NCBI GenBank assembly: GCA_000091205.1
Contig: AP006496.2
Length of the DNA: 64,000 nucleotides
Reading direction: 5' to 3' (one strand)
Origin: Cyanidioschyzon merolae
Taxonomy: Eukaryota
Numbering within the stretch: position 1 is the stretch's first letter; every line of letters starts with the position of its first letter. This document shows positions 8,430 to 64,000 of the stretch, piece after piece. Below the pieces are notes generated by a model. The model did not search any database and had not been told where the DNA came from. It saw only the letters and a list, made by a program, of their open reading frames with translations. Both the position numbers and the translations under genes were made by a program.

Positions 8430-9340
8430 ACCTCTCCTAGTACCTCAGTGGTGTGTAGCAAGCGAACAAAGTCACTATGGAATGTACCCTGTAGATCGTA
8501 GAAGAATTGCCTGGAGGATATATTCTTTACTGAAAAGTTCAAGGAAGACTGCATCTCTCCTTCAGGTTAGTCATACCACGGTACTTAGATGGTTGAGGAA
8601 CGCTGAAAGGAAGAAGTACAAGCGCTCTGCACCTAAAACCGATATTCTCAAAGCGCGCTTGCGGGAAATGGTAGAAAACGACCCCTCGTTTACGTTACGG
8701 AAAGCAAAAGCGACGATAGAGGCCGCCACGGGCATCTCTGTTTCTCAACAGCTTGTTCGTGTGGTCCTGAAATCACTGGGATACCGTCGCAGAAAAGTCC
8801 AGCTTCACGCACGACCAACATCCACTGAAATCGCAACGACAGCGTTCATGGAGAGTCGCTATCGATATGAAGCCGAGTGACGCTGGTGTGTTTTTTCTGT
8901 CGATGAGACTTGCTTCGGGTGAAACGGGCGGTGCGTATATGGGTATTCGCGGAGCAGGGCGCTCATTGTACGTCTGTTGAAGCTCGAAGAGAGCGATGAT
9001 ATCCTCATCGGATTTATCTGGAGTGGGCCCGGGTGGCAGAATCACGTTCGCTCCTAGAGAAGGCGCACACAACAGCACCGACCTGGTCGATTCACTGGTG
9101 ACCTCTCCCTGACGTCTGGCGACGTGCTTCCAATGGACAATGTTGCATGTTACCATTCCCTTTGCGTTAGGGCTTTTGCCGATGATATCGGGGTCGAGTT
9201 GCTTTTCATTACTCCGTACGGTGCGTGATTCAACCTCAGCAAGGGAGTGTTTTTTATCATGCAACGTAATGATTGCTGCACTGGAGGAATCGCAGAAGCG
9301 TTCTGCACACAGCGACAAACCGGGAGCACAGGTCAGCTTT
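8430..9340 (+). mobile_element. Decayed Tc1/mariner (IS630-superfamily, DDE_3) transposon relic
   Basis: ORF 8482..8880 encodes a transposase-type N-terminal HTH (RRRIAWRIYSLLKSSRKTASLLQVSHTTVLRWL...). Downstream, in shifted frames, lie remnants of the DDE core: 'VFFSVDETCFG' (first D), 'MDNVACYHS' (second D) and 'GVELLFITPYGA*FNLSK' (degenerate LPPYSPDLNPIE block, stop in place of the catalytic region). Total length ~0.9 kb is shorter than an autonomous element. A second ~80% identical copy starts at 63690. Confidence 0.6.
8482..9330 (+). pseudogene. Tc1/mariner-like transposase pseudogene (frameshifted, internally deleted)
   Basis: HTH N-terminus is intact. The DDE_3 core is broken by frameshifts and a stop. 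Confidence 0.55.
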
Positions 9341-10022
9341 CTTGCGCAAACCCCGGTCTTCTTCGGGAACATCTCAACCTAGCGGCATAAAAAATGCATT
9401 CATTTTGAAGAAATAAGGGAATCCACGTGAAAGTAATGGACATGAAAGTCGGGGATACACGAGGGCCGTCATCGCCAGCCGCCTGGAAGAGAAACGGAAA
9501 AATCCTCTTCTCACCGAACATCGAGCGAAGAAGCGCAAGCGACGAAGAAGAAGGAGAAGGAGAAGAGGGGAGATCGTCGAGAAAACGTATTTGCCCAGCG
9601 GGACGAAGACGAGACTGTCGAAGCACAGCAGGCGCGAGCTCTACACAACCCTTGCAACGGTGAGTTCCACCAGCGGCAACAAATCGCAAAGAGTTCGTAA
9701 ACCGATCCTTCAACATCTCCATGAATACCAGACGATGTGCAGTGCTGTCGACCAGACCCGCAGAGCTGACGCGTTCCATCTTTGTAGTGTAGCCTCTGAA
9801 GCTCGAAGTATTCAAGGAGAAACTGAAGCCGATGCCAAGAGGCCCGTCGAAAAAAGACTGAGAGGCTTCAGAGGATATATACACGCCCCATGATAGTGCA
9901 AAGAACTGCGTTTCATTGAACACGCGCTGACGCGAGTACAGTTTGGTTGCGCTTGTACTTGCGGTAACGCTACGTCTCGAAAAGCGCGCATTAACCTCAC
10001 AGATGCTTTTCTTGCACTTCCA

Positions 10023-25198: not shown

Positions 25199-27253
25199 TT
25201 ATGTGGCTTCATCGGATACCCTCTGCCAGACTTGTGCGAGCAGGCTTCGATCAAGCTGCCATACACTGGACAAGAGCGCAAGGCTCACCCCAATTGTCCA
25301 TCCGAATCCAACCTGGGGAACGTATTCACCGCCGTTGCCACTCTCTCCGACCTTTTCCGCGTGATACTTCTCGAAAAGATCACCACTCCGAAGCCAGCCC
25401 TGGTATACAGAACGCAGAAATCGGATGGCTATCTGCAAAGAAAGTTCGCGAGCTCGGTTGGAGATTTGCTCATTCGCGGAAAACTGCGTCGCTAGCGACG
25501 CAAACGCTTCGTGCAGCAGGAGTTGCACGGGTGGCCACGCGTTCGGGTAATCCCACTGTTGACCCGAATCGGTCACCAATGTTGCAACAACGCCTCCGTT
25601 TTGCAGGAGACCACTCTCCTCGAACGACTGGAGCACGCCACGCGCGATGGAAGCCGCTTGTTCCGATTCGATATGCTCGAGGATGCCGCTCCAGAGCGGG
25701 AAAAAGTTGCTCGAACTCACCGTCTGCCGCCAATCTGCAACCGTTTGCAGGGTCGTTGTATCGGCCTCCAGGTCGTAGTCGATCCATTGATCCCGGCTTG
25801 GTACGTATAAATACTTTTGCATCGTAGAGACCCGCTGTTGGACTCGATCAAGCAAGTCTCTTGTCACTGGGTCATTGGGGACCTCCTCATTTCCGGGTAA
25901 CCGCTGTTCGAAAATGCTACCTTTTTCCGTTTCCGGTCGGCTACCGCTGATATACCATCGGTAGAGAAAAGCGAGATTGCGTTCCATGCGAAGCATGAAA
26001 CTGTTGAAACACACAGGAATAATCAACTGCGTTCGGATGGAGCACATGCTTCGCCGGTCGCGCAGCCAGCGCGACGAAAAGTCCCATCCGCTTTCCGCTG
26101 CTGCAGTCAAGGCGATGAAGAGCTCACTCCGCCGCGGATCACCGAGAAGTTCCATCGAACAGTCACTTGCAAGTTTCGAGTCCTCGTAGAAGGATTCCGG
26201 TCGCGGTCCTTCGGCTGCGGGCGCATGGTAACGATTTAGGGTTCCCCCTGCGCGCATCTTTACCGTCCGTTGCTCCATCATGAAGCTGTATTCACGCTCC
26301 AGAAGCGGCAACGCTCGCCCCAAAAATGTCATCACGTCCCATCCGGCATGTGCATGCTCTGCGATGCAGCGCACCATATCCGAAAGTAGTGGTGGTTGGG
26401 TACGATTCAGATAGTAGATGCGGGCACCGTTGGGCACAAAGCCGAACTGCTCTACCAGATCGAGAAGATTCTCAACGCAGCAGCGCGCAGTCTCCCACAT
26501 ACCGCAGACCAGAAGGCCGCGAACGATGAAGTAGGTATCCCAGTAGTAGCACTCGCGGAATCGACCACCAGCCACGATGAATGGATGTTTCAGGGGCAGC
26601 AGACTGAAGCGTTCAGGTTCTCTGAACACCATCGGCGAGGTCTCGCGACCGAGTTTTCGCCAGCGTGCGACCATATCCATGAGCCAGTTTCCCGCATCGA
26701 CATCCTGTGCTTTCATCCAGCGCCAGATCTGGTGCAGCAACGGTGGCGAACCGGTCGCTGTCGTTCCAGGTTCAGGGTCCAGCTCCAACTGCGGCAAGTC
26801 CCGCGGGATCCAGGCAAGCAAGTCGCCACCAGGCGCGTAGTCAAAGTGCTCTAACAGAAAGCGACGTACCTCCTCGAAGTCGGTGTCAGGTCCCTCGACA
26901 CGTGCTAGCCGAAAGGTGGGCACAGGGGGCTCGCGCTCGGCCTCGCGGAGCCCGCTGGTTGCTTCGCCTGGGCCCGCCAGCGGCTCCTCAACAACGCGGC
27001 GACCGAACTCAGCGTCCCAGTACTCTATGATCCGCTCCGGTATTCGCCCAGGTAGCAGAGGCAGATCCACAAAGTGTTTTGAGTCAGCGAAAATGCGCAG
27101 TCGCTGAACGACTGCGAGCAGCGACTTTTCACAGCCGGCACTAGTTTCAGCGCAGTTGGCGGCACAGTATACAACCGAACTCGGAAATGCAGGCGCCAAC
27201 GCGCCCAGACGAAAAGCCATATGCACGTACGCTTCGATGACTTTCAATGTCAT
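25199..27253 (-). CDS. Trehalase (glycoside hydrolase family 37)
   Basis: Track start 27295 is GTG. ATG at 27253. Both GH37 signatures are present: 'PGGRFRECYYWDTYF' and 'QWDYPNAWPP'. Confidence 0.85.
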   Translation of the reverse strand: MTLKVIEAYVHMAFRLGALAPAFPSSVVYCAANCAETSAGCEKSLLAVVQRLRIFADSKHFVDLPLLPGRIPERIIEYWDAEFGRRVVEEPLAGPGEATSGLREAEREPPVPTFRLARVEGPDTDFEEVRRFLLEHFDYAPGGDLLAWIPRDLPQLELDPEPGTTATGSPPLLHQIWRWMKAQDVDAGNWLMDMVARWRKLGRETSPMVFREPERFSLLPLKHPFIVAGGRFRECYYWDTYFIVRGLLVCGMWETARCCVENLLDLVEQFGFVPNGARIYYLNRTQPPLLSDMVRCIAEHAHAGWDVMTFLGRALPLLEREYSFMMEQRTVKMRAGGTLNRYHAPAAEGPRPESFYEDSKLASDCSMELLGDPRRSELFIALTAAAESGWDFSSRWLRDRRSMCSIRTQLIIPVCFNSFMLRMERNLAFLYRWYISGSRPETEKGSIFEQRLPGNEEVPNDPVTRDLLDRVQQRVSTMQKYLYVPSRDQWIDYDLEADTTTLQTVADWRQTVSSSNFFPLWSGILEHIESEQAASIARGVLQSFEESGLLQNGGVVATLVTDSGQQWDYPNAWPPVQLLLHEAFASLATQFSANEQISNRARELSLQIAIRFLRSVYQGWLRSGDLFEKYHAEKVGESGNGGEYVPQVGFGWTIGVSLALLSSVWQLDRSLLAQVWQRVSDEAT

Positions 27254-29785
27254 GGTGCTCAGGTTACGGTACTGAACAGTTGCATAGTACCACACGTTCT
27301 ATACGTCAACTGATGGCGAATGCGTCTCGCGGAGCTCGCGTTTCGTCGATCGAGAAGCGCATCGATGCGATTCTCGATCAATAGAGCTGGTGCTTTCCGC
27401 TGCTGACGCTGCCGCCTTTTTTTGGATAGGCGTGGTGTGCTTTGGCATTTGTGAGCTTGGCAACCTGGTGTGCCACTGGCGCTTGCGACAGGCCCCATAC
27501 GGCTTGGTTTTCGAGCTTGTGTCGTGTCCGAACGACACACATTTGAGGTACTGGTGTGGGCAGGATGTACATTGATGACGCAGATAATCGCAGGCATCCG
27601 GTTTATGCTCGTGGGCATTGCGCAGCTGATGGTCTGGGTTCGGGCGAAGCATCGGCAGTCTCTGAAGGAATTTGGAACCCTCTATCCCTGGATGAAGAAA
27701 CGCATGCTTCCTTTCGTTTGGTGAATGCGCAGCGGGTCACGAAATTTGTGTGCGTGCTGATGGGCAAGCCCTGACTTGGAGGTACGAGGCCGGTGCGCTT
27801 GTGACTTTTCGTCACTTTTGGATGATGGTGGATTCGGTGATCGTTGGAAACCGTGTAGTGAAGTGCACCCATACTCGTGATGGTGCTCGATAGTCGAGCA
27901 ACCAAAGTGCACTCGGATATTTTTCCCAGAATACCGTGGCGGCGACTAGACATCACCCTGAATATGAACGTTTAGGGTACGCGCTTGTTTTACGTACGTA
28001 TTAGGAAACCGTAGCATGCTGTGCGGCTTCGTTGCGCACTATTCACGGCCAGCATGCCGTCACCAGAGCACCTGGTGCCGGCTGCAGCCTCCAGCTTCTG
28101 GTACCGATCGTTTGATAGCGCCAGTCAAGATGGATCGTTTCTTGACCTCAGCTCTATCACTAGCGTTTTCGACAAAACGTCATCAATATCAGAAGACGAC
28201 TGGTGATGGAGGCGCGACCGGCGGAGCTGACGCGGTCCACCTTTCTGGGACATCCTCTCAGGGTCGAATTGTACAAAGAGAAGCTGCAACCGATAGCAGG
28301 GGGCCGGTCGAAAAAGGCTAGGAGACGTCTGTGATTGGATATTAATTTACCCTAAATGGTCGTGAAACGTTTTCTTTCCATTGAACGGTAAGGGATAGAG
28401 AAAAAATCCGTCTCTCGAGCAGTTTTACTACTGGAAGGGAAAAATCAGCAGGTGGCTAACGAACATCCGCGTGCTTAAGGAATGGCGGGTGGCGTAGGGG
28501 GTGCAGATAAGTTTACGGTTTGGTGCTTGCACAACTACATACAAGTTAGGCTCTTGAAACTAATCTTATAGAGTAGATAAGAATACAGTATGTGCTTTTG
28601 TCGGGTGCCTCGATCGTGCCAGGCGAGATGCGTCGGCCGAACGTCGTGGCAGATATGGACGCTACCTGTGTGCTATGCCTCTGTCAAGATCACCGGGTCC
28701 GAGACAGTAGCAGGCACCATAACTTGGGCAATGACGATAGCATGGAAATGACTTGAACGGTCATCAGTACCAGCCCATGACGCCGGAAAGAAGCAAAATT
28801 CATGTCAGTTCCTTATTCCAGCGTCCGTGCAGCATGCATAACAAGCATAGAGAATAAACTTACATCCGTGTTCGGGAACACTACCGTATTTAGTTTGGTT
28901 ACGATCAATACAACTAACGAAACTCTTCAAGGCTAGTGTGATGCATACCTCATCCACACAAGCGTAAGCCGCAGAGAACGCTACGCTTTTGATAGAAGCG
29001 TCGAGAGGTATCGTGCCAGGCCCCAACAGCTCCATGTATGTCAGGGCGGTACTGCGATGGGCAGTAGCGTCGGCACCAGCGACATAGCCTATAGCAAGAG
29101 ACTACTCTACGTGAGTTTTCGATTTAGGACACCTGATTTTTGCTGCTGCGCGATGCGAACACGCAAGTGCCAAGGCGGGGTGTCGGACACGTGTCCTTCA
29201 TCGATCGGTGAGGCGTCTCGCGCGGTGCACGCATCGCGCTCGGTGAGCGCATCTGGGAGATCAGGCAGACATGAGACACGACATGTATGTCGCCGTTGAA
29301 GGGAAATGCGATCGCGATCTTTAGCGTGTTGCTCTCAAGTTGTATTTGCGTTAAAGTCATAGCAGAGTATACTTTTCAGGTCAATTATGTTTCAACCCTC
29401 AGTTTAGTTTATTCAAGTGATTTTTCGCGGTTTATATCAGAGGCGTTGATGGAGCGTTCTTTTTCAAAAAAACAAAAAAGGAAAGCTATGAAAAAGCAAG
29501 TCGGCGATCCTGGAGGCCCAGGGTCGCCGGCTGTCAGAAAAAAAAAACAAAAACAGTGCCGATTCCAGAAGAAAAGCAAGAGAAAAAGAAGCAAAAGGGG
29601 AGGCCTTACGTCGAAGGCGGCAAAAAAGACAACTGTACGACGAGATGGTGGTTAAAGGCTGTCTTCTTAAACAAATCAAGGATCCCCACAGGGAAACGTT
29701 GCGATACGCTATCGAAAAACGTGTCGACTCGTACTCGAAGAGTATTGTCAAGGCGTCGTCAGGACTGATGCATTTGTCGAGGTAG

Positions 29786-31713
29786 ATGTATCGCGAAGTG
29801 GCGCACATGGAAACGGTCGAGATTCCGGACGAGTTTTTCGACAAGACCTCTATTCGTCAGCTGATGCTTGGTACAGGGGAAGCGCGGAGGGAAACTCAGA
29901 TAGTGCATGCCCTCCACGAAAGCTTCGCGGAATTCCGCTTCGAAGGTAATCGATACAAGGGTGACTCGACTATTTACATATACGGGGCGGTGAAGTACCT
30001 CACGAACCTGAGGAACCATATGACGATGGACCTCGAACATTTTATGATACGCGCCGTGTTCGCTCTCGACCCGCGCATCTCTCGCAAAGGTGCACAGGCG
30101 ATGATCAATGGCATCACGAAAGATCGCAAGCGTGAAGATGAGGTCGAATTTGTAGACAAGAAGGCGTCAAAAGAGCGCATGAATGAAGCTTCTGTAATCC
30201 GTGCGGCTATCCAAGAGCATCGTGCGGTACTGGGGTTTGTTAATCCAACAGAAAAGATATCAGAGTTGAAAAAAGACAAGGAAAGATACTATCGCCTCGT
30301 CCTGCGATATTTCGTGTTTCTGGACCGAGAGCTCGAACGCAAAGCGGAGATGAAGCTGAGTGAGGAGAGAATTAAAAAAGAGTGGGAGAGACGGGCGGCT
30401 TCGCTCATGGGAAGCGCTTCTACGCGGTTCCAATGTGCAACATCAAGTCACATTTTGTGACGATCGACTCCAGCATCCTCTATGGCATCATGAGACAGAT
30501 CAGTGGGGAGTTCGATGTTAGCAACGGGAAGTTCATCGGTGAAAACCGGGAGATGCACTAGAAGAATATCTTCGAGTTCAAACTTCTCAAAGCGGGCAAG
30601 CAAAAGTTGTTCACTGGGATGATCGAAACCGATGGAGTAGCCTTGTGTGTACACGATCCGCGGTTGACGAAAGATCGTTCAGTGCCGCCCTCGGCTTCGC
30701 CCGTGGCGAAGGATGCAGAAAACAAAGCGGCGGATCCTGCGACGCAGCAGGTAGAGGATAACGACCTTGTCGTTGGTACGGCGAAGCATGAAGATGAGAA
30801 GGAGGCGGGTCTTGAGACGCAGAAAGTGCAGGATAACGACTTTGTCGTTGGCGCGGCGAAGCATAAAGATGAGAAGGAGGCGGGTCTTGAAACGCAGAAA
30901 GTGCAGGATAACGACTTTGTCGTTGGCGCGGACCTCGGGAACACGAATATCGTAACCATCGCAGCATCCACGCCTGGGGAAGATGATACTGACGGTGACT
31001 TACGTCAGAGAGACACGCGACTTTTGAGATTCCCGACAACGAGATGCTATCGAGAATCCGGTATAACGAATGCAAGGAAGAGAATCGAGATATGGAATGC
31101 AGGAGTGAAAGAGCACCTCGAAGCTTTGAGCGAGGTAACGAGCCGCGGAGCGGACTTTCGAGCTTTTCGGGAATTCCCGCAAGTTCGTGTTGCTCATTGG
31201 GATGCGCTGTAGAGGAGTATACAAAGCCTCGGTGGGCTCGTTTGCGAATGAACTTGCACTGTGGGAAGCAGCGTGCATTCGCGAATTTTTTCAATGAGTT
31301 GCGTGCCCTGAAGGAGGATGAAAGTCAGAGGCCCGTAGTAGCGTCTTGGGCAGGGCGATGGAAGACCCAAACAGGGACTACTCCAGCTCCAACGACGAGG
31401 GTATGCAAGGAGTGTGCACGGCGTTTCGTTACAATACCGATAGATGAGTTTCGAGCATCGTATACACACCACGAGCTGGGTTGTACACTTCAGAGGGTCG
31501 AGATGGAAACGTGTCAGCGGCGCCCTGAGGATACAAAAAGTACGGACCGCTGACGGAAGAGCAAATGGAAAGGAGGGCGACAGTTCGTGGACTCCTTGCA
31601 CTAGCGCTTTCTGCAAACAACGGCAAGAAACGTATCGAATCGTGAACGGAGACTTTAACGCCGCTATCAATATAAGGAAATGTACGGTGATGGAAAGAAG
31701 ACCTCCAGAGTAG
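29786..31713 (+). CDS. Fanzor-like RNA-guided nuclease (eukaryotic TnpB homologue), interrupted gene. Four ORF segments lie in different frames and are most likely joined by introns.
   Basis: Segments 29786-30460, 30607-31212, 31044-31553 and 31444-31713. RuvC-I '[21 protein letters not shown]' (D codon at 30931). Zn-finger CxxC '[10 protein letters not shown]' (31404). '[11 protein letters not shown]' (31594). RuvC-III '[15 protein letters not shown]' (D codon at 31651). Order I, ZnF, III with ~240 aa between the RuvC-I and RuvC-III aspartates. Total span ~640 codons, typical for Fanzor1. Confidence 0.6.
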
Positions 31714-31889
31714 ACGAGTGAGAACTTTGGGGACAACCTCTCAGCGTGGGACTATATGAGAAAAAGCTGGAAGCAGTAGTGAGTGGCCGCCCCCAAAAAA
31801 CCGGGAGGCACCTGCACGACAGTTGGAGGCTTCTTGTCTAGGGCGGGCTTCGCGCCACTACTGTACAAGGTCGGCATCGTTTTTCTTTT
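31600..31889 (+). ncRNA. Candidate omega-RNA scaffold (3' end of Fanzor ORF plus conserved non-coding tail up to the element right end)
   Basis: ~175 nt after the stop codon (31714-31889) is conserved between both copies and ends at the exact point where the flanks diverge. This position is analogous to TnpB/Fanzor omega-RNA. No structure or expression evidence is available. Confidence 0.25.
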
Positions 31890-31954
31890 GAAAGACGTTT
31901 GTTTCCAGGGGTGGCTCCTAGTATATTGCTTCGCGCTGCCGCAGGCACTAGTCC

Positions 31955-35140: not shown

Positions 35141-36057
35141 GGAGGAACTTGGCTGTTAGGATGAATTCTGGGAGTCGTCTGTCTCCTTCGTGATCATGCA
35201 TGGAATGCGTTCTTGGTTGGCAATGCGGGTTTGTGCTTGACACCCACCACAGTGGGTAGGCGCAGAGAGCACTGGGCCCGTGTGCGCATCCGATTCGCTG
35301 GACCTTCCGCTTGGAAGGTAGCATGTGAGTTTGTTCGCCACTGATGAGCGCTGAGGCTCGGTTAATGGACCATCAGTTGCCAGTGCTACACTCAGAGTGA
35401 GTGTCCGGCCTTCGTCTATCACGGTGAAGCCCAGCTGCTGCTGTCCTTCAAGGAGCTCGGTTCGCTCCTGTTTCCAGCGCGGGCACTGTAAGCCTAAATA
35501 TGCCAGCGTCTCCGGAATCTCGTCTCGATAGCAGGGACAGTGTTATTCCCAGTGCGATTCCAGTGTTCCTATACGGCTTAGAGACGGTGCTGCTCGCCAG
35601 AAGCCACCGACGCGTATTGTGGCGAGCCACTAGGTACCTCGAGCTAGTCCCGGGAACTCCAGCGCCTCCCACCAGTACGTGCATGAACAGGCTAGGCTGT
35701 AGTTCCGGTACAGAGTCAAGCCGGCGTTGAGGGCGCGACTGGTTCCGTGGCTACGTTCCCATATTGTTGTTTGGACCGTTCGCTTAAGGCGGCGGGAGCC
35801 TTCTATATTTCTGGGGAACGATTGGGGAGCGTGTTTTCGCCTAGGGGGCGCTTCAGCCAAATCTGCGTTGATTTCAACCAAGTGATCTTGCGGTGCATTG
35901 GGGTTTGCATGGATATGCGACTGAACCAGGTGTGCATGGTGGGCCCTTTGGCCCATATACGTGCCCGGTATCCTGCTGCTATCGCTTCTGTCGAGGATTT
36001 CTGGAGTTCAAGTCCGAGTGCCAGGAGGTATCGCGGTCGATACGCGCACCTCCATAT

Positions 36058-38420
36058 CTGGCGGGCATGAAACACCACGCGCATGTCGCCGTTAAAGGGA
36101 AACGTGATCGCGATCTTTAGCGTGTTGCTCTCAAGTACGAGTTGTATTTGCGTTAAAGTCATAGCAGAGTATACTTTACAGTTCAATTATGTTTCAACCT
36201 TCTTAAACATATCAAGGAACCCCACAGGGAAACGTTGCGAGACGCTATCGAAAAACGTGTCGACTCGTACTCGAAGAGTATTGTCAAGGCGTCGTCAGGA
36301 CTGATGCATTTGGCGAGGTAGATGTATCGCGAAGTGGCGCACATGGAAACGGTCGAGATTCCGGACGAGTTTTTCGACAAGACCTTTATTCGTCAGCTGA
36401 TGCTTGGCACAGGGGAAGCGCGGAGGGAAACTCAGATAGTGCATGCCCTCCACGAAAACTTCGCGGAATTCCGCTTCGAAGGTAATCGATACAAGGGTGA
36501 CTCGACTATTTACATATACGGGGCGGTGAAGTACCTCACGAACCTGAGGAACCATTTGACGATGGACCTCGAACATTTTATGATACGCGCCGTGTTCGCT
36601 CTCGACCCGCGCATCTCTCGCAAAGGTGCATAGGCGATGATCAATGGCATCACGAAAGATCGCAAGCGTGAAGATGAGGTCGAATTTGTCGACAAGAAGG
36701 CGTCAAAAGAGTGCGTGAATGAAGCTTCTGTAATCCGTGCGGCTATCCAAGAGCATCGTGCGGTACTGGGGTTTGTTAATCCAACAGAAAAGATATCAGA
36801 GTTGAAAAAAGACAAGGAAAGATACTATCGCCTCGTCCTGCGGTATTTCGTGTTTCTGGACCGAGAGCTCGAACGCAAAGCGGAGACGAAGCTGAGTGAG
36901 GAGAGAAATAAAGAGTGGGAGAGACGGGCGGCTTCGCTCATGGGAAGCGCTTCTACGTGGTTCCAATGTGCAACATCAAGTCACATTTTGTGACGATCGA
37001 CTCCAGCATCCTCTATGGCATCATGAGACAGATCAGTGGGGAGTTCGATGTTAGCAACGGGAAGTTCATCGGTGAAAATCGGGAGATGCACTAGAAGAAT
37101 ACCTTCGAGTTCAAACTTCTCAAAGCGGGCAAGCAAAAGTTGTTCACTGGGATGATCGAAACCGATGGAGTAGCCTTGTGTGTACACGATCCGCGGTTGA
37201 AGAAAGATCGTTCAGTGCCGTCCTCGGCTACGCCCGTGACGAAGGATGCAGAAAACAAAGCGGCGGATCCTGCGACGCAGCAGGTAGAGGATAACGACCT
37301 TGTCGTTGGTACGGCGAAGCATGAAGATGAGAAGGAGGCGGGTCTTGAGACGCAGAAAGTGCAGGATAACGACTTTGTCGTTGGCGCGGCGAAGCATAAA
37401 GATGAGAAGGAGGCGGGTCTTGAAACGCAGAAAGTGCAGGATAACGACTTTGTCGTTGGCGCGGACCCCGGGAACACGAATATCGTAACCATCGCAGCAT
37501 CCACGCCTGGGGAAGATGATACTGACGGTGACTTACGTCAGAGAGACATGCGACTTTTGAGATTCCCGACAACGAGATGCTATCGAGAATCCGGTATAAC
37601 GAATGCAAGGAAGAGAATCGAGATATGGAATGCAGGAGTGAAAGAGCACTTCGAAGCTTTGAGCGAGGTAACGAGCCGCGGAACGGACTTTCGAGCTTTT
37701 CGGGAATTCCTGCAAGTTCGTGTTGCTCATTGGGATGCGCTGTGGAGGAGTATACAAAGCCTCGGTGGGCTCGTTTGCGAATGAACTTGCACTGTGGGAA
37801 GCAGCGTGCATTCGCGAATTTTTTCAATGAGTTGCGTGCCCTGAAGGAGGATGAAAGTCAGAGGCCCGTAGTAGCGTCTTGGGCAGGGCGATGGAAGACC
37901 CAAACAGGGACTACTCCAGCTCCAACGACGAGGGTATGCAAGGAGTGTGCACGGCGTTTCGTTACAATACCGATAGATGAGTTTCGAGCATCGTATACAC
38001 ACCACGAGCTGGGTTGTACACTTCAGAGGGTCGAGATGGAAACGTGTCAGCGGCGCCCTGAGGATACAAAAAGTACGGACCGCTGACGGAAGAGCAAATG
38101 GAAAGGAGGGCGACAGTTCGTGGACTCCTTGCACTAGCGCTTTCTGCAAACAACGGCAAGAAACGTATCGAATCGTGAACGGAGACTTTAACGCCGCTAT
38201 CAATATAAGGAAATGTGCGGTGATGGAAAGAAGACCTCCAGAGTAGACAAGTGAGAACTTTGGGGACAACCTCTCAGCGTGGGACTATATGAGAAAAAGC
38301 TGGAAGCAGTAGTGAGTGGCCGCCCCCAAAAAACCGGGAGGCACCTGCACGACAGTTGGAGGCTTCTTGTCTAGGGCGGGCTTCGCGCCACTATTGTACA
38401 AGGTCGGCATCGTTTTTGTT
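36058..38420 (+). mobile_element. Fanzor/TnpB-like element, copy 2 (degenerating)
   Basis: Collinear with copy 1 but lacking the 258-bp segment 29406-29663. Flanks are unrelated to those of copy 1. Confidence 0.6.
36322..38246 (+). pseudogene. Fanzor-like nuclease pseudogene: premature stop, RuvC-I substitution and 3-bp deletion relative to copy 1
   Basis: TAG at 36631-36633 where copy 1 has CAG (Q). RuvC-I reads 'VVGADPGNTNIV' (L>P, ctc>ccc). 'ERNKEWERR' versus '[10 protein letters not shown]' in copy 1. The frame structure is otherwise identical to copy 1. RuvC-III '[12 protein letters not shown]' is retained. Confidence 0.6.
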
Positions 38421-38502
38421 TTGAAAGGCGGTGGTGGTGTGGTGTGTGTACGTCCTTTCTGAACCGCCAATTTTTCGATAAAAGCCCGAACTGCGTGAGA
38501 TT

Positions 38503-44464: not shown

Positions 44465-46696
44465 TTGCAGAACCGCTTGTTTGCTCGCGTAAAACATGTA
44501 CACTGACCAAGATCAAAATGCAGGAACGCCAATATCTTCTACGAATTGCCTGGGAGAATCGGTCCCGGTTTCTGTATACAGCGATTCAGGCTTGCTGGAC
44601 GCCTGCTTCGTGGAACCCCAGTGTCTCGCGATCGGCGAGAGTCCAACGCGCTCTCACCCGACCACTGATGTATTTGCATCGCAAGTCTTCGGCAATTCAG
44701 TGCATTACCTAGACTGTGTTCTAAACAATGCCCTCCAAGTCCACGCACCCCAGAGCCGCTAAAAGCCCCGGAGGCATGACATCATCGTCGAAAAATGACC
44801 AAGGTGTTCAAGTCTGTGTCCAGAGAGTGCTTGCGCGCATGGTCGCTGGCGGAATCACACGGAAACGAGCGTCGCTCCATCGATCGCATGGCCATCCGAC
44901 GTTTCCTCATCTTAACGGACATCTTCTGATGCATATGAATTTGTTTGCAATCCCATCTTCCCGATCTATTCCAGGTGCACCTGTGCTCTTTATAAGCGTA
45001 CCTCGTCCGAAACGCATCGGTGTTCGTGGTCCAGAATCGATTCCTGCACCCGTCGCACGTTGTCGTCGAAGGATGCGGCGTGCCGCTTTCGTGCGTGGCA
45101 CTACGTCCAGCGTTATTGGATACCACGAAACGGCGCCTCGTATCGGCGATTTCCATCTTCAATTCATTGCAATGTATCATGGATGCACGCATGTTGCCTC
45201 CTTAGAACCGAGACCTGTGGAGATGTCGGCTCGGTTTCGTGGGCACCCGCCAAAGATCGCCCGCATGAGCCGCTTGGACGCTCATCTACGCTCTCTGAAT
45301 AAAGCCTCCAAAACGTCCCTTCTGCTTGGTAGGGTGCTCAGAGCATGGTGATGTGTTCGGATACCGTCATGCCAACTGTTCGTATTCCTTTTAGCGTTCC
45401 TATGTCCGACGCTCAATCATACAGATCCCTCGACAAACGGAGCAGCTCCAACTGCTTTCCGTTCCTGCGTTTCGCCCCGTGCGCTCGATTTTTCTGTACA
45501 GCAACGACCATGACGATCTTGGACCCGGAATCCGGGCTCACCACGAAGCGTTCCTCTTCAGCTGCCTTGCACGGGTGAAAACGAGTCTCGTTAGATAACT
45601 CAGGCCTTGATTTCAGGAGTTTTACACAGATCATGCAGATGGATATTCTGTCGGTCTCTCAAGTCTTTGCGTACTTCTTTCCATTTTCTGCCCGTCTACG
45701 GGGAACCTTGATCGAGCTCCACCAATGCCCATTGCGAACTTTGTCGAATGCTTCATCGTTGATCACAGGTACCGACTACATCGCTTGTTCTTGCGCGGTA
45801 TGCTGCTATAGATGTCGCCTCTAGACTTCATACCCGCTTACTTCCGGTTAGTTCAGACGCACTGGATGCGCAGCAACACAGAATCACGTCTTTTCTATGT
45901 ATTTACCCACCATTCCTCGACTACAATTCATTCACCCTCTACGTCGTGAGCACGCTCACGGGCAGAAGCGAACCTTTCTGCCCCGGCCCGAGCTCGAGTA
46001 GAGAAGCGGCGTACCTGTCCAATGGTGCTGAAGGTAGAGAACAACTCGAGTAGAAACATGCGAGTTTCAAAACGGTGTTCGATAACAGACAAGACACCTG
46101 CGACTGCACTTACCTGGATCGACAGAACTTCTACACTAGCCAGGCATCGCCGATTCCGCGATTATCGTCGGTATCGCGGAGCGTGTCTCTCGTTCTTCGT
46201 ACGACATTCAAGCTCCGTAACCCATACTTATCCATGGAGATTCTGGCCATTCCGTACGTTTCATCGTGCTTCAAACCTGCCGTGAACGTCCGTCATAGCA
46301 CTTGTGGCGCCGGTGCGCACGCTACATGGAACAGAGCAGTGTTGTTTTGGACTGTACTGATGTAGGGCGAATAGGCTGGCCCAGGGAGCAGCTCAACGCC
46401 AATCTCAGCTGCATAATCCCTCGGCCGCTTTTGAGTGATGCAACCCGAAGTCGTCCATGACCAGGACAGAATCGTGTCGGCAGGAGAATCAGCGAGCAGT
46501 ACTGCGATGAAGGATGCAGTGTTTTACCATACTGCCGCTCTGGCGACGAACAGACGACCGCATGATTGCATCGTCGCTCGGGAAGCTGTTGTGGACGCGC
46601 GCGCATGGCCGCCTCTGTACGAAGAGCGGTTTGCCCCTACTGGAGTTCCCCTGCAAACGCCTGTCATGTCAAGTCTCGTCGAGTGAGCCGAACACG

Positions 46697-57012: not shown

Positions 57013-58700
57013 AAGTTACATCTTCTATGCGTACGCATGCCCGAGGGGCATACGTGTTCCGTGGAGCAGTGCCCGAGCATGGCGGCGGGTGCTCCATATA
57101 CATGTCCGTAAAACTTGAAATGTTCTACGACCACGACGGGTATGCGTACATTTTTACGCGCTTACGCCTCTTAGCTTTTCTGACCGGCATTCTGCTATCG
57201 GTTTCAGCTTCTCCTTGCACAGTTCGAGCCTGACAGGCTGCCAAGTGAAGCAGGAATTGTGTCAGCTCCTCGGGTCTCGTCTTCAGCACCGCACATCGTA
57301 TGATATTGATGACGGCGTTGAAGTCTCGCTTCACCAACTCCTTGCGTTTATTGCCTCTGGTTGAACTCACCAATGCAAGGATTGCTAGAACTCGTGCTCT
57401 CTGTGCCGTTTGCTGCAGTGTCAGCGCTGCGCTGCCTTCTCTCCATCACGATCTTCTGCAGTGTACATCCCAGCACATCCCTTACATATTTTGATTCTTC
57501 AAATGTACGCACTTCTTTATGCCCGTAGGTAAGGAATTCCCCTGAAAGAGAAGGACTGGTGGCAGAAACAGGTCATGCGCCCTGGTGTGTCACCGTGTGC
57601 TGAACGCATCAGCGATTCGCCCAGTGCAGCGATGTTTACGTTTCACGATGGAAAACATACACTGAATGGGCATGAACCACGGAGTGTACGGCGGAATGAA
57701 AATCAGCACTATCCCCGCCAGAATTTGCAAAAACCCCGAACTTAACGGTAATCTAGAAATGCCACGTGGTCCTTTAGAAGAGCGTCGTCATACGGCATCG
57801 AAAATTCTCCAATGATTCGACAAAGAACGTGCTGTTGTATCAGCCTTGCCTGTGAGCGAAACTGAGGCCGCCAAGTGGATCCGCTCCACCTGGACCAGAC
57901 GATGATTTCCGAGTTCTCCTCACGTTCGATTGTACATACAACGGAACACCCTGCTCCGCGAATACCCGTATACGCTCCAACCGTCTCATCCGATGAAAGT
58001 CTCATCAACTGAAAAAACAAACCGACTTGCCTGTGCTTCATACCGATGGTTGAGTTCTGTGAATTCTGTTGTTGCGGATTCGGCGGAAGCTGTGCTTTCG
58101 TGAACCTGGACTTTATTGCGCCCGGATCCCAGTGTTTTGAGGGTCAAACGAACAATCTGTTGAGAAACAGAGACGCTTGTGGGAACTATTATCGTCGCTC
58201 TTTGCCTTCCGCAAAGAGATCGATCGGTTGTTTTTCTACCGTAGACCGCAAAAAGTCTTTAAAAATATCGGTTTTTGGCACTAAACTCCTTTCTTCTTTC
58301 ACTGTTCCTAAACTATCCGCGTACCGTGGTACGACTGACCTGAAGGAGGAGCGCAGTCCTTCTTCCACTGTCCAGAAAAGAATATATATACTACAAGCGA
58401 TTCGTCTACGATGTATACGATACTTTGCATCGTGATTTCGATAGCCTCCTACGTGCCACACTCTGGGTGAAACAGACTTGCGTTGAAAGATTATGAAAAC
58501 CCATGCAGCCTAGCAGGCAGGTCGGAGTACGTAAATGAATCATATTGTTCCGTTCACAATGCAACGAGTCGCGCAGTCGGCTGCGGGCGGACGAATCGCG
58601 TACCGCGAGCCACGTTGTATGAAGCGGTGTCTGTCTTCGCACTGAAGTCGACGTCGATACTGCTTCTCCGGACGCTCGCTTCAACGCGATCCGGGAGAAG

Positions 58701-63689: not shown

Positions 63690-64000
63690 CACCCTAGCTG
63701 CGGTGGTGAGCAGGAGCTCGAAATCACGATGCAATGTACCCTGTAGATTGTAGAAGAGTTGCCAGTAGGATATACTCTTTACTGCATAGTTCAAGGAGGA
63801 CTGCGTCTCTTCTTCAGGTTAGTCATACCACAGTACTACGCTGGTTGAGGAACACGGAAAGGAAGAAGTATAAGCGCTCTGCGCCTAAAACCGATATTCT
63901 CAAAGAGTGCCTGCGGGAAATGGTAGAAAACGACCCATCTTTTACCTTGCGGAAAGCAAAAACGACGATAGAGGCCACCATAGGCGTATCTGTTTCTCAC
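63690..64000 (+). mobile_element. Second copy of the Tc1/mariner-like relic (5' part, truncated by the window end)
   Basis: 63731-64000 aligns with 8476-8745 at ~80% identity, including the HTH-coding region (…SLLQVSHTTVLRWLRN…ILKARLREMVENDPSFTLRKAK…). Confidence 0.55.

Follow-up and report, generated by a model that had tools for sequence, protein, structure and literature searches.

The repeat element and its relatives

The window (the whole 64-kb stretch of DNA analysed) contains two copies and at least four remnants of the element described here. It also carries a trehalase identical at 684 of 684 residues to C. merolae 10D BAM81219.1, which identifies the host as strain 10D. The main parts of the element are as follows.

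28545 to 29232, plus strand: upstream module, contiguous with copy 1 and absent from copy 2 (blastn against metagenome loci)
29233 to ~31912, plus strand: core Fanzor1 unit of copy 1, made up of a 5' leader, a disrupted ORF and a 3' tail (self-blast; blastn to 80 loci)
29645 to 31713, plus strand: Fanzor1 pseudogene, with a conceptual product of ~690 aa that is 66% identical to the intact protein P0001 after repairs
30729 to 30931, plus strand: tandem repeat of a 75-bp unit present 2.7 times, giving a 25-aa repeat in the protein directly N-terminal of RuvC-I
31714 to 31912, plus strand: non-coding 3' tail conserved in 41 non-redundant copies, which may be the scaffold of an omega-RNA, the right end of the element, or both
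31878 to 31897, plus strand: subterminal 8-bp hairpin; the copies begin to diverge ~10-15 nt downstream of it
36030 to 38445, plus strand: copy 2, which has the four 1-nt deletions and the TAGs of copy 1 (self-blast and alignment)

By blastn across the 80 loci, the core unit of copy 1 is ~80-83% identical to dozens of other copies. The module on its 5' side recurs at ~12 related metagenome loci with staggered 5' starts, and the junction between module and core is sharp, falling at 29231-29233 in at least eight loci. The earlier note had started the gene at 29267; the first in-frame ATG supported by the relatives lies ~380 nt further downstream, at 29645, and the repeat unit itself begins at 29233. 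We looked for terminal inverted repeats (TIRs) in the element and found none, in keeping with its initial description as a non-TIR element.

The family to which copy 1 belongs is in all likelihood one already published for the C. merolae genome. CMe-1A is a Fanzor1 family of C. merolae 10D with ~150 copies, ~80% identical to their consensus; it is ~3 kb long, lacks TIRs and shares a 5' module of ~635 bp with TE-N2_CMe (Bao & Jurka 2013, Mobile DNA 4:12, section 12; PMC3627910). It is the single Fanzor1 family listed for this genome (PMC3627910). From the matching properties and this sole listing we infer that the window element is CMe-1A, an identification made by description. By the same kind of matching, the 28545-29232 module probably corresponds to the first ~635 bp of the published consensus, the part that resembles TE-N2_CMe.

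Metagenomes containing Cyanidioschyzon yielded 329 related stretches, ~80-83% identical. Most of these relatives are broken too, a fully open ORF being present at only one of 80 loci (L001/L003, from hot-spring Cyanidioschyzon metagenomes). Its product, P0001, has the full 752 aa and keeps all catalytic and invariant residues. L024 was considered as a second intact copy and rejected, as it is open only from P0001 residue 114. L060/L032 share the 27494-28311 flank and were considered as an orthologous locus, but their further flanks differ from the window, and they were likewise rejected.

Fanzor1 homology and the RuvC site

The earlier note had read copy 1 as a Fanzor1/TnpB-like gene, and had proposed a profile search and a structure prediction as the check. 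We obtained a conceptual product of copy 1 by repairing four frameshifts and two nonsense codons. Taken alone, this protein has no PDB match by phmmer, no significant Pfam family was found for it or for the single ORF segments, and the Pfam families OrfB_IS605 and OrfB_Zn_ribbon gave no match reaching threshold. The relatives, in contrast, do carry the assignment. A profile built from them (A1) and searched against the PDB matches PpFz1 (9cf0) at E=1.1e-9 and SpuFz1 (8gkh) at E=1e-6, with the D/E/D motifs aligned in both cases. Foldseek with the model of P0001 returned Fanzor1 proteins as all of its best seven matches (E=1.4e-8 to 6e-5), SpuFz, PpFz and GtFz leading, and then Cas12 proteins; confidence in this AF2 model is low (pLDDT 56, TM ~0.3), and we used the ranking of the matches and disregarded the TM-scores. 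Related cluster representatives number 4859 at E <= 1e-3. The bridge from the window sequence to Fanzor1 is made of relatives that are 66% identical, the homology being visible only through their profile. Profile-to-PDB matches and fold search thus support the classification of the copy 1 gene family as Fanzor1: a TnpB-like RuvC nuclease of eukaryotes, carried by an element that lacks TIRs.

The catalytic codons of copy 1 were located by alignment.

30931 to 30933, plus strand: RuvC-I Asp codon GAC, aligned to the invariant Asp of 117 relatives and to the solved Fanzor1 motifs
31446 to 31448, plus strand: RuvC-II Glu codon in 'IDEFRAS', the probable alternative (rearranged) glutamate, from alignment to relatives and solved Fanzor1
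31651 to 31653, plus strand: RuvC-III Asp codon GAC, aligned to the invariant Asp of 117 relatives and to the solved Fanzor1 motifs

Both aspartates had been proposed from the sequence at 30931 and 31651, and each was confirmed at that coordinate as the invariant Asp of RuvC-I and RuvC-III, respectively. Across the 117 relatives the three D...E...D columns, beginning at 30931, 31446 and 31651 in copy 1, are 97-100% conserved. Fanzors can have a rearranged RuvC-II, in which Gly or Pro stands in place of the canonical Glu and an alternative Glu lies downstream (PMC10530073). The family is consistent with such a site: an invariant 'AYG', mapped by motif context, is followed 33 residues on by the invariant Glu of 'DEFRTS'. 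The surroundings of the three codons have fared worse in copy 1. The family-conserved Pro adjoining the RuvC-I Asp (P485) is Leu, the invariant 'YG' upstream of the RuvC-II Glu has become 'SW' (Y622 to S, G623 to W), the Arg before the RuvC-III Asp, 97% conserved in the family, is Gly (R724 to G). Elsewhere Y522 is Cys, and further family-invariant residues are likewise replaced. Altogether, copy 1 has lost 11 of the positions conserved at 85% or more that P0001 retains.

A zinc-ribbon TNB domain is a typical, not an obligatory, feature of Fanzor1. In copy 1 two cysteine pairs had been taken for such a finger. 'PCTSAFCKQ' turned out to be an out-of-frame translation, the homologous frame giving a different 16-aa sequence, and the counterpart of 'VCKECARR' in relatives is the conserved stretch 'YKECARRF', which precedes the RuvC-II Glu and is not a zinc finger. 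Close relatives lack a CxxC...CxxC ribbon between RuvC-II and RuvC-III and read 'THHELGC...RGLLALVSTT' there; the cysteines are kept in distant relatives only, one of which, P0052, matches Cas12f1-like_TNB at E=1e-4. The C. merolae Fanzor1 family is without zinc-ribbon cysteines. The 25-aa tandem repeat differs in copy number among relatives, and this region is disordered in the model.

Disruption of the coding sequence

Compared with intact relatives, copy 1 carries the following lesions.

29783 to 29785, plus strand: in-frame nonsense TAG, GAG (Glu) in the intact relative; common to copy 2 and metagenome contig L066
30408 to 30409, plus strand: frameshift 1, one base lost from a G run (GGGG to GGG), frame 2 to 1 (tblastn and DNA alignment)
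30559 to 30561, plus strand: in-frame nonsense TAG, TGG (Trp) in the intact relative, 88% conserved in the family
31210 to 31211, plus strand: frameshift 2, a 1-nt deletion inside a conserved 11-aa motif, frame 1 to 0 (tblastn and DNA alignment; also in L066)
31536 to 31537, plus strand: frameshift 3, a 1-nt deletion, frame 0 to 2 (tblastn and DNA alignment)
31639 to 31640, plus strand: frameshift 4, a 1-nt deletion (GAATTC to GAATC), frame 2 to 1 (tblastn and DNA alignment)
31711 to 31713, plus strand: TAG stop, premature by at least eight codons relative to intact relatives, which have TCG (DNA alignment)

The earlier note had described copy 1 as apparently intact, its frame-shifted segments being exons separated by spliceosomal introns, and had proposed it as a candidate functional OMEGA system. 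That the ORF is frame-broken in both copies held up, but there are four changes of frame and not three. Introns do occur in the Fanzor genes of other eukaryotes (PMC10530073), and an intron-containing gene would account for the same segment structure in copies 1 and 2 and for the presence of the D/E/D codons. The junctions themselves speak otherwise: tblastn matches in frames 2/1/0/2/1 adjoin within 0-6 nt, and the DNA alignment with intact L001 opens four 1-nt gaps. With homologous residues contiguous at every junction and exactly one base missing, there is no room for an intron. Further, the same alignment puts TAG in place of GAG and of TGG within well-aligned coding sequence, in P0001/L001 a single ORF without breaks encodes the same protein, and invariant residues are lost in copy 1. 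The C. merolae genome has only ~27 introns in all, which also counts against splicing. We therefore give hardly any credence to an intact, spliced gene and a live OMEGA system at this locus.

Equally little credence goes to a functional gene whose lesions are sequencing or assembly errors, or are overcome in translation by programmed frameshifting and read-through of the stops. Two of the deletions do fall at error- and slippage-prone positions, one in a G run (30409-30411) and one beside an A run (31537-31540). However, both copies have the same lesions, and TAG1, TAG2 and frameshift 2 recur in the independently assembled metagenome contig L066; neighbouring host genes are long, clean ORFs of 1305-1459 aa. 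Four frameshifts with two or three stops far exceed known recoding, and the substitutions accumulated since the copies diverged show no bias by codon position (12, 9 and 8 differences between copies 1 and 2 at positions 1, 2 and 3), the neutral pattern. Copy 1 is a pseudogene from which a full-length nuclease cannot be made, and with these lesions it is not a candidate functional OMEGA system. This removes a false lead, the locus not being a "live" eukaryotic RNA-guided nuclease, and illustrates that a pseudogene with RuvC motifs left in it can pass for an active gene, and frame-shifted segments for exons.

The two copies, the 3' tail and known counterparts

A second copy with the same broken structure had been noted, and copy 2 indeed shares every lesion of copy 1. 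It has an extra TAG at 36631-36633, making three in frame, and lacks 262 bp corresponding to 29401-29662. The two copies are 98.4% identical inside and only 83% identical over the 5' 170 bp; identity to the L001 type at this 5' end is 90% for copy 2 and 82% for copy 1, and the two copies belong to different subtypes both in the 5' 170 bp and at the 3' terminus. In view of the contrast between interior and 5' end, gene conversion between two insertions that were already old and dead is the most likely history, and nearby dead copies appear to be homogenised in this way. The alternative is that a dead copy was mobilised in trans and its ends diverged afterwards.

The 3' tail bears on this alternative. 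Its conservation matches that of the coding sequence, and its single-sequence fold has z = -1.8. For the aligned 3' ends of the 41 copies, RNAalifold predicted only a weak structure (-2.9 kcal/mol). Base-pair-probability voting and alifold on sub-blocks of the tail gave almost no structure, because the terminal hairpin occurs in different registers and sequences. In two internal stems drawn by hand, P1 and P2, 82% of cells are paired, yet their covariation is not above that of shuffles. A search of Rfam with the tail gave no relevant match. The subterminal hairpin stands out more: most copies have one at the corresponding position, its stem differing between copies (at least three sequences), and its median z is -2.3, with z < -2 in 23 of 41 copies versus 3 of 123 coding controls. 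The tail is a candidate omega-RNA, and its RNA structure is putative.

With its protein gene dead, the copy could still be a working non-autonomous element whose tail is transcribed as omega-RNA or serves as transposon end, for use in trans by the nuclease or transposase of an intact copy at another site, the identity of the copies reflecting recent trans-mobilisation. The conservation of the tail, the hairpin maintained across copies with alternative stems, and the 1.6% difference between copies 1 and 2 against a family average of ~20% fit such an element. Against it, the ends needed for mobilisation are the most divergent parts of the two copies, the covariation of the internal stems does not exceed that of shuffles, and no annotated C. 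merolae 10D Fanzor protein is among the database matches, which makes a trans-acting source in this strain hypothetical. We consider it unlikely. Only slightly less doubtful is the broader proposal that the lineage is still active, as a Fanzor1 without zinc ribbon in a thermo-acidophilic alga, its pseudogene copies being putative non-autonomous carriers of omega-RNA and right end that are served in trans; it is suggested by the full ORF of P0001 and by the 3' tail and hairpin preserved in dead copies. For copy 1 itself a residual role at the RNA level is possible, as the D, E and D codons survive and the tail and hairpin look well kept.

We thus favour, with a probability of about 0.9, the reading of the locus as two degenerate copies of the TIR-less Fanzor1 repeat family CMe-1A, dead in their coding sequence and most likely gene-converted in their interior. 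An active relative would produce a TnpB-type RuvC nuclease of ~720-750 aa, guided by RNA transcribed from the 3' end of the element. In the window the coding sequence is dead, with four single-base deletions, two TAGs, a premature stop and the replacement of invariant residues, to which copy 2 adds a third TAG. The copies would descend from two old insertions that arose independently, and gene conversion would later have homogenised 2.2 kb of their interior, which would explain both the identical lesions and the divergent ends. The intact relative from the hot-spring metagenomes could be modestly interesting as a thermotolerant Fanzor candidate.

From CMe-1A the window element differs in nothing substantive. 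It lies in the same genome (10D), encodes a Fanzor1-type protein, has no TIRs and no recognisable target-site duplication (TSD), and its copies are ~80% identical to one another; with the upstream module it spans 3.37 kb (28545-31912) against ~3 kb for CMe-1A, and its separable 5' module of 629-688 bp fits the description of TE-N2_CMe. The window simply holds one decayed member and a second, 5'-deleted one.

With the solved Fanzor1 proteins SpuFz1 (8GKH), PpFz1 (9CF0) and GtFz1 (9CER) the family shares the order and context of the RuvC D-E-D motifs, an N-terminal half that is WED/REC-like, the probable replacement of the canonical RuvC-II Glu by Gly ('AYG', by motif context) with the catalytic Glu downstream ('DEFRTS'), and, at the 3' end of the element where Fanzor1 encodes its omega-RNA, a non-coding tail that is conserved. 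It differs in being only 11-16% identical to them, in the missing CxxC...CxxC ribbon of its close relatives and in the variable 25-aa tandem repeat before RuvC-I; moreover, the window copy is a pseudogene, and the omega-RNA, TAM and cleavage of its lineage are putative.

Prokaryotic TnpB of IS200/IS605 elements (e.g. ISDra2) has the ancestral RuvC fold, and its elements likewise have subterminal hairpins at their ends and a guide RNA from the transposon right end, the latter putative in the window family. In contrast to TnpB, the window family resides in a eukaryotic nucleus, is about twice the size, has a probably rearranged RuvC-II and no TnpA, and gives no match at threshold to OrfB_IS605 or OrfB_Zn_ribbon.

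Family assignment of copy 1

Copy 1 (core unit 29233 to ~31912, + strand; second copy 6.5 kb downstream, 36030-38445, + strand) is covered by the following coding features.

29786-30460, + strand, ORF fragment
30607-31212, + strand, ORF fragment
31044-31553, + strand, ORF fragment
31444-31713, + strand, ORF fragment
30729-30931, 75-bp tandem repeat (2.7 copies) within the coding sequence, directly before the RuvC-I Asp

Neither the ORF fragments nor a conceptual protein of 689 aa, repaired by hand, gave any match of their own in Pfam or PDB. A search of a large protein collection found 52 relatives of the repaired protein, the best of which, P0001, is uninterrupted, 752 aa long and 66% identical over its full length; its sole precomputed Pfam label is PF26935 (DUF8286). 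Profile A1, built from 12 relatives, matches the solved Fanzor1 proteins of Parasitella parasitica (9cf0, E=1.1e-9) and Spizellomyces punctatus (8gkh, E=1e-6), pairing the RuvC motifs vgaDPG with viDPN, vDEFrt with lDEYkT and nRDlnaA with nRDmls. AlphaFold models P0001 with modest quality (pLDDT 56); a Foldseek comparison of this model with the PDB nonetheless ranks seven Fanzor1 entries first (SpuFz, PpFz and GtFz; E=1.4e-8 to 6e-5) and Cas12 proteins after them. Together with the 4859 cluster representatives matched by the profile in 1.8 billion proteins, these results make the Fanzor1 assignment sound, in agreement with the earlier note, which had proposed a Fanzor gene. The RuvC motifs it quoted are likewise in place, with GAC codons at 30931 (RuvC-I) and 31651 (RuvC-III).

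The zinc finger proposed from two Cys pairs does not hold up. 'PCTSAFCKQ' is a frame 1 reading of 31587-31613, where the relatives place the coding frame in frame 2, corresponding to RGLLALVSTTSDSKKRMEF in P0001; 'VCKECARR' aligns to the conserved YKECARRF upstream of the RuvC-II Glu and is no metal site. None of the close relatives has CxxC...CxxC (they read THHELGC...LLALVST), which is kept only by distant relatives, such as P0052.

The 25-aa unit of the tandem repeat, whose copy 2 equivalent is 37262-37464, duplicates the beginning of the RuvC-I strand. It occurs ~2 to 5 times among relatives (P0001, P0006, P0008), is missing from distant ones, and lies in a stretch for which disorder is predicted (residues 342-472 in P0001). 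The first ATG of the main frame is at 29645 ('MVVK'), with none earlier; a K/R-rich short ORF with an ATG start in another frame (29470-29650) overlaps the main frame's 5' end and recurs in the intact relative (L001:9936-10100).

Lesions in the two copies

The frame breaks had been attributed to introns in an otherwise intact gene. A tblastn search of the window with P0001 gave five abutting HSPs, neighbours being separated by only 0-6 nt.

HSP 1, P0001 residues 7-285, frame 2
HSP 2, P0001 residues 282-576, frame 1
HSP 3, P0001 residues 578-684, frame 0
HSP 4, P0001 residues 687-720, frame 2
HSP 5, P0001 residues 711-750, frame 1

There is no candidate intron sequence at the junctions, and the intact relatives are single-exon. 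Lesions were mapped in a three-way DNA alignment of copy 1, copy 2 and the intact metagenome locus L001, in which every frame change is one base missing relative to L001.

Lesions of copy 1 (+ strand; frameshifts and TAG changes all from the three-way alignment)
30408/9, frameshift 1, 1-nt loss (GGGG to GGG)
31210/1, frameshift 2, 1-nt loss
31536/7, frameshift 3, 1-nt loss
31639/40, frameshift 4, 1-nt loss
29783, TAG for GAG
30559, TAG for TGG
31711, terminal TAG for a sense codon

All four frameshifts and three TAG changes are common to copy 2, which carries an extra TAG at 36631. Comparison with 117 relatives showed that copy 1 has lost several at least 85%-conserved residues still kept by P0001: the invariant (100%) G623 is W, R724, adjoining the RuvC-III Asp, is G, and Y622, Y522, Y593, R519 and P485 are S, C, H, T and L. 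The 29 coding substitutions between the copies are spread 12/9/8 over codon positions 1/2/3, showing no purifying selection. A metagenome contig from an independent assembly, L066, matches the copy 2 locus at 98.6% identity and has TAG1, TAG2, the copy-2-specific TAG and frameshift 2, so that the lesions are real mutations. This wild copy 2 allele has a further 2-nt deletion beside frameshift 1 (L066 866-900, window 30380-30415), which puts the frame right locally; frameshift 2 and the other stops stay.

With four 1-nt losses, in-frame TAGs and missing conserved residues, copy 1 is not intact. Judged from its sequence, it is a pseudogene belonging to a family that had been published before for the C. 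merolae genome, and the proposal of a functional OMEGA system is wrong for this reason.

History of the copies and other remnants

Copy 1 29663-31897 and copy 2 36199-38430 are 98.4% identical with a single 3-nt indel, whereas 29233-29400 and 36030-36202 are only 83% identical. The 98.4% tract begins exactly at a 262-bp heterology (29401-29662), present in copy 1 and missing from copy 2. At the 5' end, copy 2 shares 90% identity with the L001 type and copy 1 shares 82%; the last ~15 nt of copy 1 (...GACGTTTGTTTCCAGGGGT) are of the L014/L036 subtype, those of copy 2 (...GGCGGTGGTGGTGTG) of the L001/L041 subtype. The simplest reading, we infer, would be that two old insertions, which arose independently and lie 6.5 kb apart in the same orientation, underwent gene conversion.

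A metagenome scan found 329 related stretches, and 80 of them were retained. Among these loci the ORF is fully open only at L001/L003; L024 is open from residue 114 onward, and the rest are all broken. No annotated C. merolae 10D protein is among the database matches to the family.

The window holds three short CMe-1A-like remnants, each of the C-terminal part and 3' end.

9676-9798, + strand
28178-28342, + strand, just upstream of copy 1
57257-57474, - strand

The 9.7-kb and 57.3-kb remnants each follow, in the same order, a copy of another ~1-kb repeat (8455-9412 and 57495-58452, 70% identical; third copy 63721-63999). A second, far more divergent Fanzor1-like remnant at 44785-45760 (- strand) is spread over three frames; it is 30-34% identical to relative P0045 (residues ~328-645) and 28% identical to CMe-1A, which places it nearer to the distant relatives. 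Its sequence suggests a Fanzor1 lineage that is older or separate, whereas the 2013 paper describes only one Fanzor1 family for C. merolae (PMC3627910).

The 3' tail and the CMe-1A family

For ~200 nt past the stop, conservation equals that of the coding sequence, and most copies have a stable hairpin right before the point of divergence. Its stems occur in at least three sequences (UUUUUC/GAAAGA, GUUCGA/UCGAAC and GCACGCGC/GCGCGUGC), with a G-C to U-A swap in L024; its median z is -2.3, with z < -2 in 23/41 copies against 3/123 coding controls. Two internal tail stems pair in register in 82% of cells (30-62% when slid), with covariation not above shuffles. The whole tail folds with z = -1.8, and an Rfam search of it gave no match. 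Such conservation and folding are compatible with, and do not prove, a candidate omega-RNA scaffold and/or right end of the transposon, of the kind known from Fanzor and TnpB (PMC10432273). The 10-15 nt past the hairpin (31900-31920; 38430-38445; 3' ends of L002-L081) are rich in G and T and semi-conserved (TGTTGTTG, GGTGGTGTG, GTTGGTG), and beyond them the flanks diverge; this stretch may represent the actual end of the element, a favoured target or a segment resembling a guide.

Neighbouring ORFs are eukaryotic (BK channel, Sec1, ZGRF1-type helicase, ABC transporter, trehalase); the trehalase ORF (25199-27295, - strand) is identical at 684/684 residues to BAM81219.1 of C. merolae strain 10D.

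Upstream, module 28545-29232 is contiguous with the element in ~12 related loci with staggered 5' starts (28545, 28604, 28668, 28793, 28995, 29030...), while at least eight other loci and copy 2 start sharply at the 29231-29233 equivalent, a junction straddled by an inverted repeat (29148-29162/29225-29239). The pattern is one of fuzzy 5' ends and a constant 3' end. Segment 27494-28311 is 84-85% identical to sequence immediately upstream of the element in L060/L032, where it abuts the 28668 equivalent, so that the window has 356 bp extra (28312-28667); the repeat may reach farther 5' than 28545.

The single Fanzor1 family described in the C. merolae genome, CMe-1A, has ~150 copies, each ~80% identical to a ~3-kb consensus without TIRs and with TSDs undetermined, whose 5' 635 bp share 95% identity with TE-N2_CMe, a repeat in its own right (Bao & Jurka 2013, PMC3627910). 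Matched by its properties, the window element fits this description: it too has no TIRs (none were found on searching), is ~80-83% identical to dozens of other copies, and has a separable upstream module (28545-29232).
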